Positions 41,889-49,838 of a stretch of 64,000 nt of DNA are shown here, one piece after another. The stretch's first letter is position 1. The number at the start of each line of letters is the position of its first letter. Source of the stretch: Planctomycetota bacterium (GTDB taxonomy: Bacteria > Planctomycetota > UBA1135 > GCA-002686595); NCBI GenBank assembly GCA_044228975.1, contig JBGATX010000002.1:31122-95121 (forward strand), written 5' to 3'. The position numbers and the translations under genes were made by a program. A model generated the notes under the pieces. That model was given only the letters and a program-made list of their open reading frames with translations, was not told the DNA's origin and searched no databases.

Positions 41889-43262
41889 ATGTCCCCCGCA
41901 ACCATCCTCCAGCGCCACCGGCGGCAGCGTCGTCGCGCCTTCGTCCCGCTCGCGCTCGCGTGGGTCCTCGCGGCCTGCGCGTCCTACCCGGAACGCACGA
42001 AGGCCGCGTATTCCGACTTCGAGAGTGGACACCTGCGCGCAGCGTTCGACGCGTACAAGGACAAGCAGACGACCGGTTCGGAGTTCCTCTCAGGCGCGGA
42101 GGCTGGCATGGTCGCCTTCTCCGAGGGTCGCTGGGACGATGCCGTCGCGCAGCTCGACCGTGCGATGGAGGTCACCAAGGACGCCGAGCGCCAGGCGTTG
42201 CTCTCTCCCGAAGCGATGGAGGAGACGCTGCTCACGTGGACGCTGAACGAGAGCTTCCAGGCGTACGTCGGCGAAGGCTACGAACGAGTGCTGCTCCACG
42301 CGACGGCCGCGCTTGCGCGCCTGGCGAAGGGCGACATCACAGGAGCACGCGTCGAGTCGAAGCTCGCCAACGAGCTGCTCGAGTCCGAGGAGCAGCTCTA
42401 CAAGAAGAAATATGCCGCTGGAGGGCTGGGACATTTCGTATCGGCGCTGGTCTACGAGCTGGATGGCAAGACCGATGACGCGCGCATCGACTACGAACGC
42501 ATGCGCGCGAAGGGACTGGGCACGGCGCTCGCCGGTCGCGCGCTCCTGCGCCTCTACGAAGCGCAAGGCAAGGACGACGAGGCCGAGGCGCTGCGCAAGG
42601 AGCTCGGCGGGGACGTCGAGATGCCCAAGGACGCGGCGAACATCGTCATCGTCGCCGCTATCGGCATCGGCCCGTACAAGCGCGCGAACACGCTCACGAT
42701 CCCGACGCCCGACGGAATCCTGCAATGGTCCGTGCCCTCGTACGAGCGTCGTCCACAGGCCGTGGGTGATCTCGAGCTCTCGATCGCTGGCGGCGTGGGC
42801 AGCGTGCGAACGATCGTGATCGAAGACGTGGGCAAGGTCTCCGACGAGAACCTCTCCGATCGCTTGCTCCTGCTCTCGGCGAAGTCCGCCGTGCGTGCCG
42901 TACTCAAGCGCGAGATGGCGCAAGCGCTAGGCGACAAGCACGGAGGCTGGGCCGAGCTTGCCGGCAACCTCTTCACGATCCTGACGGAGCACGCCGACTT
43001 GCGCGCGTGGCAGACGCTTCCCGATACCTGGCAGGCCGCGCGCGTTTTCGTGCCGCCGGGCGCGCACGAGCTCGTGCTCGAGGCACGCGGCGGCGAGCGT
43101 CAGAACCTCGGTAGCTTCGTGCTCGAACCGGGCGAAACGATGTTCGTCTTCGCGCGCACGATCGGCCCGCGCTTGCTCGCCTATCCCATCGGCGGGCGGA
43201 AGTCGGCCGTCGAAAGTCCGTCCGCCACCGAGACCACGCCGCCCGGAGGCTCGACCCCGTGA
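41889..43262 (+). CDS. COG3014-like lipoprotein
   Basis: ATG 41889 within track ORF 41532..43262. Signal RRRAFVPLALAWVLAAC, a TPR-like N-terminal half, and operon context with YcfL-like and LpoB-like genes. Confidence 0.7.
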   Translation: MSPATILQRHRRQRRRAFVPLALAWVLAACASYPERTKAAYSDFESGHLRAAFDAYKDKQTTGSEFLSGAEAGMVAFSEGRWDDAVAQLDRAMEVTKDAERQALLSPEAMEETLLTWTLNESFQAYVGEGYERVLLHATAALARLAKGDITGARVESKLANELLESEEQLYKKKYAAGGLGHFVSALVYELDGKTDDARIDYERMRAKGLGTALAGRALLRLYEAQGKDDEAEALRKELGGDVEMPKDAANIVIVAAIGIGPYKRANTLTIPTPDGILQWSVPSYERRPQAVGDLELSIAGGVGSVRTIVIEDVGKVSDENLSDRLLLLSAKSAVRAVLKREMAQALGDKHGGWAELAGNLFTILTEHADLRAWQTLPDTWQAARVFVPPGAHELVLEARGGERQNLGSFVLEPGETMFVFARTIGPRLLAYPIGGRKSAVESPSATETTPPGGSTP

Positions 43263-43666
43263 AGACCAGCATCTCGATCCTGCTCGCCGCCATCGCGGCC
43301 TTCGTCTCTTGCCGCTCGACGTCGGGCTCCGGTGCCGGTGGGCCCCCGCGGCAGGTCTACACGGCGATGCAGGGAGACGAACGCGTCCATCAGGACCTCG
43401 AGCTGCGCTCCCCACGCATCGTTCGCACGGGCGGCGCGCGGGCGGCGGAGTTCGAGCTCAAGAACCGCACGTCGTCGATGCTCGACATCCTCTACTGCGT
43501 GGAGTGGTACGACGCGCACAACGCACGCATCGACGCGCTCCCGCAGCTCTGGTACCCCGTCCACCTGGCCGGCGGAGCGACGCATCCCGTCCACGCGGTC
43601 GCGCCCACGGCGCAGGCCGAGTCTTTCCGACTTCTCGCTCAACGTCCGGGCGCCTTCAGTCACTAG
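43259..43666 (+). CDS. YcfL-like (DUF1425-type) lipoprotein
   Basis: GTG start overlaps the upstream stop (GTGA). Lipobox ILLAAIAAFVSC. FELKNRTSSMLDILYCVEWYDAHN pattern, about 135 aa. Confidence 0.65.
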   Translation: MKTSISILLAAIAAFVSCRSTSGSGAGGPPRQVYTAMQGDERVHQDLELRSPRIVRTGGARAAEFELKNRTSSMLDILYCVEWYDAHNARIDALPQLWYPVHLAGGATHPVHAVAPTAQAESFRLLAQRPGAFSH

Positions 43667-43711
43667 CGCTTCGCGACCTTCAACCACGATCCCACCTCGG
43701 AGCTTCGAATC

Positions 43712-44341
43712 ATGAGCAAGTTGTGCCTGTCGTTCCTTCTCGTCTCCCTCGTCGGCGCTTCGTCCTGCAGCTCGACACGCTACGGCGATTCGAAAGCCAC
43801 GGAGACCGTCAACGTCGATTGGGGCTCGACCGATCTGCAGACCTTCTCCGCGGAGATGGTCAAGTCGCTCCTCGACGCTCCGCAGCTCGCCTACATGGAC
43901 CACTCGGGCAAGGGCGAGGACAAGCGCATCATCGTCTACATGGGCGGCATCCGGAACGAAACGAAGGAGCACATCAACCTCGAGTCGATGAACGACTCGA
44001 TCAGCACCGAGCTCCTGCGCAGCAAGCGCTTCCGCCTTGCCGCCGACCAGAAGGGCCAGACCGAACTGGGCGACCAGGTGCGCTTCCAGAACGAGAGCGG
44101 TCGGGTCGCCGAGGAACAGGCGAAGAAGTTCGGAAAGCAGATCGGCGCCGACGTCGTGCTCTACGGCACGCTGTACTCGATCGAGAAGAAGAAGGGCCGC
44201 TCGATCGAGAACCTCGGCACGAAGACCGAGGACGTCTACTACCAGTTCACCTTCAAGTGCGTGAACATAGAGACCGGCGAGATCATCTGGCAGGAGAACA
44301 AGGACATCCGTAAGCAGCAGAAGACCGGCATCTTCGGCTGA
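43712..44341 (+). CDS. lpoB: LpoB-like (COG3417) lipoprotein
   Basis: Lipobox FLLVSLVGASSC. VDWGSTDLQTFSAEMVKSLL, IRNETKEHINLESMNDSISTELL, GADVVLYGTLYSI, and VNIETGEIIW resemble the LpoB / COG3417 fold family. Confidence 0.75.
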   Translation: MSKLCLSFLLVSLVGASSCSSTRYGDSKATETVNVDWGSTDLQTFSAEMVKSLLDAPQLAYMDHSGKGEDKRIIVYMGGIRNETKEHINLESMNDSISTELLRSKRFRLAADQKGQTELGDQVRFQNESGRVAEEQAKKFGKQIGADVVLYGTLYSIEKKKGRSIENLGTKTEDVYYQFTFKCVNIETGEIIWQENKDIRKQQKTGIFG

Positions 44342-44449
44342 GCGGCGCGGCGCCATTCGTGGCCGTCGATCGCGTTCGGCAGCGAACCTGCCTCGGCTCG
44401 ATCGCACCGCCGGCTCGTACGGATGGGTGTGAACGAGCGACACGAGCGA

Positions 44450-45472
44450 AGCTGACGGGAAAGCGCTTCCCGTCTTCCTGATGGGCAAGGCCCGCTGGTC
44501 GACCGCCGGCGGGCCTGCTTCTTGGATAGGCGCCCGTCCAGCGTTGCTGCCTGCCTCCGACAGAAACCCCGACTTTCCGCGATCGGGGGCTAGGTTGCCC
44601 CGGCTCCGTGGCCCGCAGTCATCGAACTGCGCTGGGGACAAACTCTTCTCGAAGCCGTCAGCCCGCTGGGTCATACCCTGCGGGCTGATGGTGTTTCCGG
44701 GCCGGCTGCCGGCGACGTGCCGCCTGGCGTAGAACCTCCCGACACGAGTCGCAGATCGATCGTTCGGAGCGCCGCGGCTCACCGGCTCGATCGGTCGCAG
44801 CCAAGTGCTGCGCTGGGGATCCGAGAAACTCTTCTCGACGCTGCGAGCCCGCTGACCTCTTGGTCGGCGGGCTCGTCTTTCGTCGCGAGCTGTGGGATGC
44901 GGTGGCCCGCGCGAACGAGTTCGGGACGACGCGTTCGGAGTCGACTTCGAGGCGGCTGTGGATCGCGCAGCTGCGAGCTGCGCTGGGGATCCAAGAACTC
45001 TTCTCGATGCCACGAGGCCCGCTGGACTGCCTGCCAGCGGGCTTCGCGTTTCGTCGGGACGCGGCGTGCGGCCACGGATCGTCCAACGAAGTCGAGCTCC
45101 GTGCTCCGCGACGAAACTGCGACGCCGAGCGAATCGCCGCGTTCGGGAGACTCGAAGACGCGGCTGTGGATCGTGCAGCTGCGAGCTGCGCTGGGGATCC
45201 AAGAACTCTTCTCGATGCCACGAGGCCCGCTGGACTGCCTGCCAGCGGGCTTCGCGTTTCGTCGGGACGCGGCGTGCGGCCTGGATCATCCAACGAAGTC
45301 GAGCTCCGTGCTCCGCGACGAAACTGCGACGCCGACGAATCGCCGCGTTCGGGAGACTCGAAGACGCGGCTGTGGATCGTGCAGCTGCGAGCTGCGCGCT
45401 GGGGATCCAAGAACTCTTCTCGATGCCACGAGGCCCGCTGGACTGCCTGCCAGCGGGCTTCGCGTTTCGTCA
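44450..45472. repeat. tandem array of five to six 170-208-bp units, each with a conserved core and a GC-rich hairpin
   Basis: CTGCGCTGGGGA at 44627, 44808, 44978, 45186 and (with a GC insertion) 45392. Hairpins begin at 44488, 44659, 44845, 45017, 45225 and 45433. Units starting at 44953, 45161 and 45367 are near-identical. The same peptide strings repeat in several track frames, as expected for non-coding repeats. Confidence 0.9.
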
Positions 45473-48400
45473 GGCACCGCGGCGACGGTCGAACATCGCG
45501 CGACGCCGGGCGAGCGCTTCATCCCGTACCTGCGTGCGCTCGACGGTCTGACGCTGCAGGTTCCCGTCGTCCGCACCGTCGTGCAGGAACGCCGCGAGCG
45601 CACGCACCGTCGGGAACCGGAAGAGATCGGTGATCGAAACCTGCCGTCCGCACGTGCGCTTCAGCCGACCCTGCACCTGCACGGTCAGCAACGAGTGCCC
45701 GCCGAGATCGAAGAAGTTGTCGTCGCGGCCGACATTCGGCGTCTGCAGCACCTCGCTCCAGATGCCGGCGATCGCCGCCTCGAGCTCGCCCTGCGGCGGT
45801 TGGACTTCGCCGCGCACGAGGGCGCGTGACTCCTCGGGCGCGGGAAGTGACTTGCGATCGATCTTGCCGTTGGGCGTGAGCGGCAGCGCGTCGAGCACGA
45901 CGATGGGTCCTGCAGCATGAACTCCGGCAACCGCGCGCGAAGGTGCGTGCGCAGCGCCTCGACGTCGATAGGCGCCGTTCCGCGCGGTGTGACGTAGCCG
46001 ACGAGCCGGCGGTCGCCGGGCGCGTCCTCGCGCACGATGGCCGCCGAGTCGCGCACCGATGCGACCTCGCGCAGCGCCGATTCGATCTCGCCGAGCTCGA
46101 TGCGATAGCCGCGCAATTTGATCTGGTGGTCCGCGCGACCGAGGTAGTCGATCGCGCCGTCCTCGCGCAGGCGGACGACGTCGCCGGTGCGGTAGAGGCG
46201 TGCATCGGGGGCGCCGCGGAATGGGTCGGCGACGAAGCGCTCGTTCGTGAGTTCCGCCCGCTGCCAGTATCCGCGCGCGACGCCGGCACCGCCGATGTAG
46301 AGTTCGCCGGGAACACCGATCGGCACTGGCTTCATGCGCGCGTCGAGCACGTAGAGCTCCGTGTTCGCGATCGGCGTGCCGATCGGAACGGAGTGCTCGC
46401 CGCCGTCCACGCGCCAGGTCGACGACCAGATCGTCGTCTCGGTCGGTCCGTACATGTTGAGCAGCGTGCCCGCGAAACTGCGCCGCAGCTCGTTCGCCAG
46501 CGGCGGCGGGAACGCCTCGCCACCGATCATGAGCACACGCAGCCCGCGCAGCGCATTGGCCGCGCGCTCGTCGGCCAGGATCAGCGACGCCATCGAAGGC
46601 GTGCACTGCAGGTGCGTGACGCCGTAGCGCTCGATCAGCGAGGGGATCGACGCCTCCTCGCTGCGCGAGGCACGACGGACGACACGCCGGCGGAGCTCGT
46701 CGAGCAGCTCGAGGCGCTGCAGCACGAGCTCGGAATCGACTCCGAAGTCGATCAGGCACGCGATCTCGTCGACACCGACGTCCTCGAGTCGCTCGACCAT
46801 CCGCATGCAGGTCTCGGGCGTGCCGAAGAGCCCGCTCGTGCGGAAGTAGCGCTCGAACGCGTTGTCGAGCAGAGCCTCGACGTCGTCGCTCGACAGGTCG
46901 CGGAAGTCGTTGCTGACCTCCTGCGCCTCGCCACCACGCTGCGTCTTGAACGTGGGGAACGACGCCACGAAGTCGCGCACCAGTCCCACCGACGTGCGCA
47001 GGTACTCGCGCATCGGACGGCGCACGGTGCGGCGCACTTCCTCGTCGTCGTGACCGACGAACGTGTGCAGCATGATCGTGACGCGCCCTTGCTCGGGCCC
47101 GTGACCGTGTGCCGTCCAGGCATCGCGATAGGCGCGGATCTTCTCGTGCAGTTCCTCGACGGTCTGCCCCAGCAGGTGCGTCAGCACGTTCGCGCCGAGC
47201 TCGCCTGCGGCGCGCCACGTCTCGACGTTGCCCGCGGTCGTGATCCACACGGGCAGCTTCTTCTGGATGGGGCGCGGCAGCGTGCGCACCGAGACCTTGC
47301 GGCCGTCGGCGGCCTCGCACTCGACCGCCTCTCCGCTCCACAACCTGCGCAACGTCGCCAGGCCCTCGACCAGCAGCTCCTTGCGCCGGGCGTAGTTCTG
47401 CGGCGCGAGCACGAAGTCGTTCGGTTGCCAACCTGACGCGAGAGCGATCCCGACGCGGCCGCGCGAGAGGTTGTCGACGAGCGACCACTCCTCGGCGACG
47501 CGCAACGGATGATGCAATGGGAGGACGACGCTGCCGGCGCGGATCGCGATGCGATCGGTGATCGCGGCGATCGCAGCCGACGCGACGGCGGGATTGGGAT
47601 ACAGGCCGCCGAAGGCGTGGAAGTGCCGCTCCGGAGTCCACACGGCTTCGAAGCCGTGCCGATCGGCGAAGCGCGCGCCCTCCAGCAGCAGACGGTACTT
47701 GTCGCTGGCGCGTTCGCCTTCGTCGCTGGCGAAGTAGAAGAGGCTGAACGACGTCGCGCGCCTGCCGCTCGCGCTCGAGGACGCCGCGGGGCGCTTGCGA
47801 TCGTCGCCGGTGTAGATCACGACCTCGAAGCCGCGCGTGAGCGTCCAGAGCAGCTCGAGCACCGAGATGTCGAACGACAGGCTCGTCACCGCGAGCCACG
47901 TGCCGCGTTCCGTGCCGACGCGTTCGTCCATGCCGACGAAGAAGTTGACCACGTTGCGGTGCTCGACCATCACGCCCTTGGGGCGGCCGGTCGAGCCCGA
48001 CGTGTAGATCACGTAGGCGAGGTTCGCGGGCTCGATGGAGCGCGCGACACGCGTCGCGCTCTCGTGCGCGATCGAATCCCACTCGACGTCGACGCGGATC
48101 GTTGGCACGCCGGCGGAAGCGACGAGGCTCGCCAGATGATCCTGCGTGAGCACCACTCGCGCCTGTGCGTCGTGCAGCTGGTACGCGATGCGCTCGCGCG
48201 GGTAGGTCGGATCGAGCGGCACGTACGCGCCACCGGCCTTGTGGATGGCGAGCACGCCGACCAGCAGGTCGATCGAGCGTTCCATGCACAGCCCCACGAG
48301 CACGTCGGGACCGACGCCGAGGCTGCGCAGCCGCGCCGCGAGCCGGTTGGCGCGCTGATCGAGCTCGCGATACCCGATCTCGTTCGCGCCGCAGACGAGC

Positions 48401-49838
48401 GCGCGTCGGGCGTGCGGTCGGCCTGCGCCTCGAACAGATCGGAGATGCACGCGTCGCGCGGCACGACGGTGCGAGTGCGATTCCACTCGACGAGCATCTG
48501 CTCGCGCTCGGGCGGCGTGAGCAGCTCGATCGAGTCGAGCCGACGTTGGGGCTCGCTCGCGAAGCCCTCGAGGATCGCGCTCAGGTGCCCGAGCAGGCGT
48601 TGCGCAGATGCGTCGGCGATGCGGCGCCGATCCCAGTCCAGGCGCAGGAGCAGCTCCGTTTCGGCATAGGCGTACAAGCTGAGCGCGAAGACCGTCTTCT
48701 CGTGGAGCCGGAATCGTCGAGTCGGGCCGGCGATGCCCAGTTGCGCCAGCTCCGCATCGAGAGCTTGCGTATCGAACACGAGCACGGTGTCGAAGAGCGT
48801 GCGTCCGGCGGCGAGGCGGCAGACGCGCTGGATGTCGACCAGCGGCGTGTGCTCGAAGGGCCGCAGCTCGACCTGCTGCTTGCGGAGCAACGCCAGCCAG
48901 TCCGCCACTCGCGCGTCACCCGCGACGTGTACGCGCAACGGCAGCGTGTTGATGAACACGCCGACGATCGCATCGGCGTCGGCGACACTCGAGCGCCGGC
49001 CGGCGCGCACGCAGCCGTACACGACGTCCTCTTCGCCGCAATAGCGCGCGACGAGCAATGCCCACGCACCCTGGACGACCGTGTTCATCGTCACGCCGCA
49101 TTGCGTGGCAAGTTCACGCAGCCGCGTCGTCGAGGCGCGCGTCAGGCGCATCTCGATCTCGTCGCGATCACGCTGCTCTCCGACCGCGCCGGGTTCCGGC
49201 GCCGGGAGCTGCAGCGTGTTGGGATTCCCGAAACCGTGCAGACGCGCCCGCCAGAAGGCGTCGTCGCCGCTCGTGTCGCGTTGGCGCAGCCAGTCGACGT
49301 GCTCGCGGAAGGAGCGAGACGGTGCGAGCTCCAGCTTGCGCCCGGCGCGCAGCGCGTCGTAGCGCGTGAAGACGTCCTTCAACACGGCGGCGAAGGAGCG
49401 TCCGTCGAGCAGCACGTGATGGAACGTCCAGACCAGCGTCCACGCGCTCTCCGAGCGCTGGATCCAGGCGAATCGCATCACCGGAGCACGCGCGAAGTCG
49501 AGCGGCCGGGCGCGATCGGCCTCGAGCCACTCCTTCGTGCGCGCCGCATGTCGGTCGAACGGGAACTCGCGCCAATCGAGCACCGCGAAGTCGAGGGCGA
49601 CCGTCTCGTGCACCTCCTGCAGCGGCTCGGAAAGTCCTTCCCAGCGAAACGCCGTGCGCAGAGCGCCATGGCACGCGACCGTCTGGCGCCAGGCTTCCTC
49701 CAGCGCCTCGCGCGCGAGCGGCTCGTCGAGCTCGCACACGATCTGCTCGACGTCGACGCCGGTGTGTCCACCCGTCAAATGGTGGAACAACATCCCCTGT
49801 TGCATCGGGGACAGGGGAAATGCGTCGGAGACGGTCAT
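45470..49838 (-). pseudogene. NRPS module C-A(luciferase-like monooxygenase insert)-PCP, interrupted by two frameshifts
   Basis: Spread over three minus-strand frames (track ORFs 48009..51200, 45685..48486, 45470..48289). ATG 49838 MTVSDAFPLSPMQQGMLFHH, C domain HHVLLDGRS, A domain LAYVIYTSGSTGRPKG and SLSFDISV, monooxygenase insert FSLFYFASDE...WTPERHFHAFGG, then NMYGPTETT, GELYIGGAGVARGY, YRTGD, LRGYRIELGEIE, LPLTPNGKIDRK, and PCP FFDLGGHSLL. The frame changes near 48400 and 45910. Confidence 0.85.

Follow-up and report, generated by a model that had tools for sequence, protein, structure and literature searches.

A conserved tandem array of putative sibling small RNA genes in Planctomycetota

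The window analyzed here, a 64-kb stretch of DNA from a Planctomycetota bacterium, contains a non-coding interval (44342–45469) in which six units follow one another head to tail on the plus strand (Table 1). We consider it likely, with a probability of about 0.7, that this interval is a tandem array of six paralogous, independently transcribed small RNA (sRNA) genes that are regulatory in trans. Each unit would be an autonomous transcription unit, with its own promoter and its own intrinsic terminator. The initial annotation of this DNA had offered three explanations for the repeats: tandem sRNA genes, stacked terminators insulating two convergent operons, and a REP/MITE-like element caught amplifying. 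The first is the candidate that the evidence supports. Beyond what that annotation noticed, each unit possesses a promoter-like motif and a 5′ hairpin, and the arrangement is conserved in other genomes.

Table 1. Features of the array and its flanks, in window positions
Feature	Position	Strand	Basis	Parts and remarks
LpoB-like lipoprotein gene	43712–44341	+	Pfam PF13036 (LpoB), E = 2.7e-32	This gene ends the conserved upstream operon
Unit 0 promoter-like motif, GTTCGG-N15-CGGCT	44374–44398	+	Motif and spacing as in the other units (PWM)	
Unit 0 putative RNA, type C head unit	44408–44525	+	Sequence, fold, weak covariance-model match at 44452–44531 (21 bits)	Variable body; small hairpin GGGAAAGCGCUUCCC; CU-rich stretch GUCUUCCUGAUG; terminator hairpin 44488–44516, then tail GCUUCUUGG
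Unit 1 promoter-like motif, variant GATCGG-N15-CGGCT	44581–44605	+	Sequence	
Unit 1 putative RNA, type A	44615–44699	+	Covariance-model match, 79.6 bits	SL1 44615–44630; CUGGGGA 44632–44638; AACUCUUCUCGA 44641–44652; terminator hairpin 44655–44691, tail GUGUUUCC; type A orthologues in six other genomes
Unit 2 promoter-like motif, GTTCGG-N16-CGGCT	44762–44787	+	Motif search	
Unit 2 putative RNA, type B	44797–44885	+	Covariance-model match, 78.9 bits; inverted repeat	SL1 44797–44811; CUGGGGAUCC from 44813; AACUCUUCUCGA 44827–44838; terminator 44844–44875
Unit 3 promoter-like motif	44933–44957	+	Motif search	
Unit 3 putative RNA, type B	44967–45055	+	Covariance-model match, 75 bits; inverted repeat	SL1 44967–44981; CUGGGGA 44983–44989; AACUCUUCUCGA 44996–45007; terminator 45013–45046
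Unit 4 promoter-like motif	45141–45165	+	Motif search	
Unit 4 putative RNA, type B	45175–45263	+	Covariance model, alignment	Near-identical copy of unit 3; terminator 45221–45254
Unit 5 promoter-like motif	45347–45371	+	Motif search	
Unit 5 putative RNA, type B	45381–45469	+	Covariance-model match, 65.7 bits	GC insertion after SL1; AACUCUUCUCGA 45412–45423; terminator 45429–45462
NRPS gene end (PCP domain), convergent	45470–48289	−	Pfam, tblastn	Right array boundary, outside the element

Several features mark the interval as non-coding. GC3 is flat, at ~0.6–0.8 in all frames, across 44340–45470, while it is at least 0.9 in the flanking genes. No Pfam match was found for the long ORFs that cross the array, no conserved start codon or ORF was found in the units, and loop lengths vary among copies by non-multiples of 3. 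The flat GC3 and the lack of a Pfam match lead us to reject the ORFs at 43181–45289 (minus strand) and 44717–45829 (plus strand) as genes, and long ORFs over such a GC-rich gap should not be annotated as genes.

The periodicity of the interval is equally plain. Specifically, CTGCGCTGGGGA is present exactly at 44627, 44808, 44978, and 45186 and, with a GC insertion, at 45392; five or more matches arise in 0 of 100 shuffles. The sequence AACTCTTCTCGA occurs exactly five times in the array and nowhere else in the 64 kb, and no further copies of the units were found elsewhere in the window. TRF reports a 208-nt period, repeated 2.6 times, at 44952–45484 with 96% matches. Units 3–5 are near-identical; they differ by single-base changes and indels and by one substituted patch that corresponds to the unit 3 promoter spacer, and unit 5 has the GC insertion. 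The core of the last hairpin ends at 45459, 11 nt before the NRPS stop codon (45470–45472). The CTGCGCTGGGGA repeats, the near-identity of units 3–5, and the position of the last hairpin had been claimed in the initial annotation and stand, as do the hairpins that it listed, each of which exists where it was placed, as judged by sequence, inverted repeats, and fold. The degenerate sixth unit suspected at about 44450–44525 is likewise real: it has a promoter-like motif and a model score of 21 bits. One short-read contig (L001; Logan SRR14932533) ends at window position 44981, the exact start of the near-identical 208-nt units, and its final 700 nt match the window without a difference. Because the contig stops there, the count of three such units is not verifiable from short-read data, and the array explains why short-read assemblies break at this spot.

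A two-block motif, cGTTCGg-N15/16-C(G/C)GCT, precedes every unit, and all six units of the window are marked by it. Its geometry is nearly rigid. Of 84 units, 74 have a spacer of 15 nt and 8 a spacer of 16 nt, and in 81 the 5′ hairpin follows CGGCT at a distance of exactly 9 nt. Nine nucleotides past CGGCT lie a pyrimidine and then the G of GCAG, and we infer that this G is the transcription start. The blocks GTTCG and CGGCT, which would serve as −35 and −10 elements, contain 1.3–2.0 bits per position, and an A-rich stretch lies further upstream. The motif is also nearly exclusive to the arrays: on both strands of 373 kb, it occurs 55 times at strong model matches, 18 times at head-of-array units, and once elsewhere. 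When type A orthologues from seven genomes are compared, the alignable parts are the promoter blocks and the RNA only; the spacers are unalignable. A spacer that is fixed in length but not conserved in sequence is the hallmark of promoters read by sigma factors.

The generic promoter scan found no sigma-70 consensus in the interval, and no match was found between the CGGCT-type motif and a known sigma-factor consensus, CGGCT being unusual as a −10 element. Another candidate was a sigma-54 promoter of the form CGGCT-N9-YGCAG. The sigma-54 consensus places GG and GC exactly 10 nt apart (TGGCAC-N5-TTGC). We reject this candidate on spacing, as GG and GC are 11 nt apart in 81 of 84 units; an extra fixed block, GTTCG, is also present 16 nt upstream. 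The GC-rich −10 block differs from the TAnnnT-type box of the epimerase gene that follows the array in relatives, and thus an alternative sigma factor is the likeliest reader. Judging from the motif, that reader is probably ECF-like.

The predicted RNAs are ~85–95 nt in length. Each begins with a hairpin, GCAGY-loop-RCUGC, that may be protective, continues with an invariant module, CUGGGGA(C or UCC..)(A)ACUCUUCUCGA, and would end at a GC-rich hairpin with a U-rich tail. The tail is present on the plus strand only, which bears out the terminator-like polarity noticed at the outset. Across 66 copies from ~40 genomes, 12 of 13 terminator stem pairs exhibit compensatory changes, on both sides, and 95% of cells are paired in a MAFFT alignment that was fitted to no structure. 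These values are reached in 0 of 500 shuffles, and slid-partner controls pair 31–44%. The claim that compensatory stem changes betray a selected structured element, made from the window's own units, thereby gains the support of the wider family, and the sequence of the terminator hairpin drifts with its pairing kept. In the 5′ hairpin, most of the sequence is invariant, and a few compensatory changes fall at the inner pair.

Folding ensembles leave AACUC mostly unpaired and GGGGA/UCUUC partly paired. The module may accordingly be either single-stranded or folded into a weak GGGGA/UCUUC hairpin that exposes AACUC. Because both blocks of the module never vary, the GGGGA/UCUUC pairing is not testable by covariation, and their invariance leaves room for sequence-specific protein binding. 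Of the 17 copies that the covariance model recovered independently of the search pattern, 13 keep UCUUCUCGA intact and 16 keep CUGGGGA, and almost all of the variation in those copies falls within the first three bases of the second module block. At the 3′ end, the U-tails of window units 2–5 are interrupted (UUCGCGUUUCG), so termination may be leaky, and the same interruptions explain why the unit terminators escaped a generic scan for promoters and terminators. The covariance model, built from 66 distinct copies, identifies 87 copies at 53–92 bits in 373 kb, on one strand within each array. Weaker matches of 21–34 bits lie just upstream of arrays, one of them being the match to unit 0.

The units of the window belong to a family with a fixed address. 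Scanning one genome for each of 185,579 species for the pattern GCTGGGGA-N1-8-AACTCTTCTCGA yields 45 loci, 41 of which reside in ~40 Planctomycetota MAGs (two titled only "bacterium") and contain 1–5 tandem copies. Sources of the MAGs include activated sludge, Lac Pavin, groundwater, and soil. The copies of a locus lie on one strand, and all but one of the carrier genomes have a single locus; the exact core is not dispersed in hundreds of sites. The four matches outside Planctomycetota (L009, L019, L024, and L032) lack the promoter, the 5′ hairpin, and the terminator, are rejected as members, and fit the ~9 matches estimated by chance. The only off-locus copy seen is type B-like (GGGGAUUC) and stands alone on a separate contig of MAG CAYMYN01 (L011:4862–4952); this copy has no promoter-like motif.

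The surroundings of the array are conserved as well. An LpoB gene lies upstream in 24 loci, where the flank is in view, and the conserved upstream operon encodes a 912-aa protein (orf912), a TPR protein, DUF1425, and LpoB; the array sits beside envelope-related genes. LpoB identity among carrier genomes is only 52–75%, yet the promoter motif and the non-hairpin module are conserved. On the other side, at least 34 loci have a gene for an NAD-dependent epimerase, oriented like the array and mostly lying 20–130 nt past the last unit. The downstream gene is thus co-directional in most relatives, and it is convergent in the window.

Such conservation bears on the proposal that the units are REP/MITE-like repeats or mere stacked terminators amplified by neutral tandem duplication. 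The three near-identical units do point to recent duplication, and in the window the terminator-like hairpins do stand between convergent genes. A REP/MITE-like element caught amplifying is nonetheless refuted by the single locus in all genomes but one, the single strand, and the conserved synteny. Insulation of convergent operons fails as the main role because the flanking genes are co-directional in most relatives and because a promoter motif and an invariant non-hairpin module accompany the hairpins in each unit, both of them conserved at the LpoB identities given above. We judge neutral repeats or stacked terminators to be very improbable indeed.

The units come in subtypes whose order is fixed: C, then A, then B. 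Type A precedes type B in 19 of 19 loci that have both. Type C, the head unit, stands out by its variable body and by the CU-rich stretch that lies ahead of its terminator, and relatives possess analogous head units after the same promoter motif as that of unit 0. Type A carries GGGGAC, and type B carries GGGGAUCC. The initial annotation took the left-hand units of the window to be older and decaying; that view is wrong, as these units represent subtypes A and C, which are distinct and conserved and have orthologues in other genomes. Copy number shifts by lineage-specific tandem duplication, and the expansions are independent. Type A is present three times in five MAGs (L022, L023, L041, L043, and L048), and type B is present four times in L045 and in the window. 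Under the sibling sRNA reading, multiple copies would supply both dosage and sub-functionalized variants, namely types C, A, and B. With its fixed subtype order and its separate expansions, the family is a natural case for the study of how sibling sRNA arrays evolve. In several relatives, type C head units contain long GA-rich tracts, for example GAGAGAGAAACGAGAG (L030:1505–1600, L034:2040–2140, L029:1600–1710, and L014:6375–6470). Being complementary in character to the CU-rich module of types A and B, these tracts could function as an internal sponge or engage in self-pairing.

The proximity of the epimerase gene raises the possibility that the units act in cis, as leaders or attenuators: a duplicated promoter-plus-attenuator would control read-through into the downstream gene. 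The co-directional epimerase, at the short distances noted above, is what this idea predicts, since terminator read-through would feed it. The window, however, has no co-directional downstream gene, yet five high-scoring units are kept there. The upstream A and C units are conserved though further terminators lie between them and the gene, and the epimerase has a −10-like box of its own, TAGCAT or TAGAGT, 6 nt before the ATG. In addition, the RNA appears too simple for a ligand-binding aptamer, and a non-systematic look revealed no evident alternative antiterminator pairing. A role as cis leaders is quite unlikely. With regard to the epimerase box itself, relatives (L045:6012–6049, L048, L022, L026, and others) display it as (c)GATAGCATG or TAGAGT, followed by N6 and the ATG. 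Such an arrangement points to a −10 element of the TAnnnT type and to an mRNA without a leader.

We favor the notion that the sibling RNAs act in trans. Base-pairing sRNAs that target ribosome-binding regions rich in purines typically have a CU-rich module beside the terminator. By analogy, the module of the array, which is CU-rich and resembles an anti-Shine-Dalgarno sequence, would bind mRNA segments rich in purines and thereby alter translation or stability. A search for 8-mers complementary to the module showed no enrichment in 437 kb (~100 non-array matches versus 239 for reversed controls). Only one complementary site is recurrent, and it lies in lpoB: ATCGAGAAGA, at 44180–44189, is perfectly complementary to UCUUCUCGAU, an invariant sequence within the sRNAs. 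Outside the arrays, the ATCGAGAAGA 10-mer occurs nine times in 437 kb, eight of them at this same lpoB site, and predicted duplexes there have energies of −13 to −17 kcal/mol in most genomes. Because the site encodes a conserved SIEKK motif, protein constraint may explain its recurrence.

Invariance of the module could also signify that a protein, not an mRNA, is the partner. Specifically, CUGGGGA…ACUCUUCUCGA could be a protein-binding site, either CsrB/RsmZ-like or a mimic of the 16S rRNA 3′ end, and the RNAs would function as protein-sequestering decoys. Both module blocks are invariant and do not covary, which fits recognition of the sequence itself, and they bear a weak resemblance to the 16S 3′ end, which we take to be CUGCGGCUGGAUCACCUCCUUUCU. 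The similarity statistic is marginal, however, as the local alignment is bettered by 1.7–5% of mononucleotide shuffles, and the GAUC portion of the likeness is missing from type A. CsrA sponges contain many GGA-containing motifs, whereas each of these RNAs has one, a single GGGGA that is predicted to lie in a stem and not in a loop. The position of the CU-rich module beside a terminator, moreover, is that of base-pairing sRNAs. For these reasons, we regard the decoy interpretation as unlikely.

A bolder version of the 16S resemblance can be formulated. The 5′ hairpin together with GCUGGGGAUCC..CUCUUCU resembles helix 45 and the tail of 16S rRNA, again with marginal similarity. One could imagine that the array produces, under control of an alternative sigma factor, anti-Shine-Dalgarno or 16S-3′-end mimics. 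If so, the induced RNAs would either contend with ribosomes for initiation regions rich in purines or sequester a factor with affinity for the 16S 3′ end, and translation would shift globally toward leaderless mRNAs, such as that of the neighboring epimerase. The lpoB mRNA would be a direct internal target, and the GA-rich type C head RNAs would be a built-in sponge. We offer this scenario as speculation, and a distinctly improbable one.

Tandem arrays of sibling sRNA genes are themselves already known, and comparison with them places the planctomycete array. The NsiR1 array of Nostoc/Anabaena consists of tandem short units, each with a specialized promoter, an sRNA of ~60–90 nt, and a terminator. 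Like the proposed planctomycete genes, the units of NsiR1 each have their own promoter, sRNA, and terminator and occupy a fixed position beside a protein-coding gene. The two share no sequence or structure similarity, belong to different phyla, and differ in promoter, that of NsiR1 being the DIF motif; the planctomycete array has three ordered subtypes and far fewer copies. LhrC1-5 of Listeria, which are linked to cell-envelope stress, use CU-rich motifs to pair with purine-rich ribosome-binding regions. They too are tandem sibling genes, each with its own promoter and terminator, and have CU-rich motifs. Their sequence is unrelated, and LhrC is controlled by a two-component system, unlike the sigma-type two-block motif described here; LhrC expression and targets are experimentally shown, whereas those of the planctomycete array are predicted from sequence.

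The CcsR1-4 or "cuckoo" RNAs of Alphaproteobacteria are co-transcribed with an upstream gene and then processed. They resemble the present array in being tandem homologous hairpins with anti-Shine-Dalgarno-like C/U-rich motifs downstream of a small conserved gene. In the planctomycete array, by contrast, each unit has its own conserved promoter-like motif, and no Rfam model matched. MicA, RybB, and MicL of enterobacteria are single-copy, Sigma-E-dependent envelope sRNAs. The likeness lies in small terminator-ended RNAs, an alternative-sigma promoter, and an envelope-related context; the differences lie in their single copy and promoter consensus, and for the planctomycete array the link to a sigma factor is a prediction from the motif. 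Finally, earlier comparative work contributes one motif to the comparison, Rhodopirellula-1, a candidate RNA reported in Planctomycetes (Weinberg et al. 2010, PMC2864571) for which Rfam has no entry. We reject it as the same element because it is a different, bulged hairpin with an AAC..GAU..GAAC base (PMC2864571). It occurs in many copies per genome, 5′ of short hypothetical genes (PMC2864571), and is unrelated to the array.

The family appears undescribed. Rfam 15 has no match at gathering threshold in the window, the best sub-threshold matches on the region are unrelated (E > 1), and nothing relevant emerges at E ≤ 10; a literature search found no description of the family. Planctomycetota have almost no characterized regulatory RNAs, and for the entire PVC group, a 2022 review counts eight annotated sRNA families (PMC9029176). 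The array family is strongly conserved, has a clear gene anatomy, and can be modeled, a covariance model being ready, and the promoter matrix could define a regulon and point to the sigma factor.

The downstream flank of the window merits a separate remark. The epimerase gene is absent from the whole 64-kb window, as judged by tblastn, which is unusual among the loci. At the point where the homology of unit 5 to units 3 and 4 stops, namely the convergent NRPS stop codon, a minus-strand NRPS/glycosyltransferase cluster begins exactly. This coincidence suggests that an insertion or rearrangement occurred at the array boundary. The adjoining NRPS module (45470–48486, minus strand) looks frameshifted. 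One ORF, 45685–48486, contains an adenylation domain with an embedded luciferase-like monooxygenase and AMP-binding_C; the PCP domain lies in a different frame (ORF 45470–48289, amino acids 839–902); and GC3 switches frame near 45.8–45.9 kb. The frame switch could reflect a sequencing error, a pseudogene, or programmed frameshifting.
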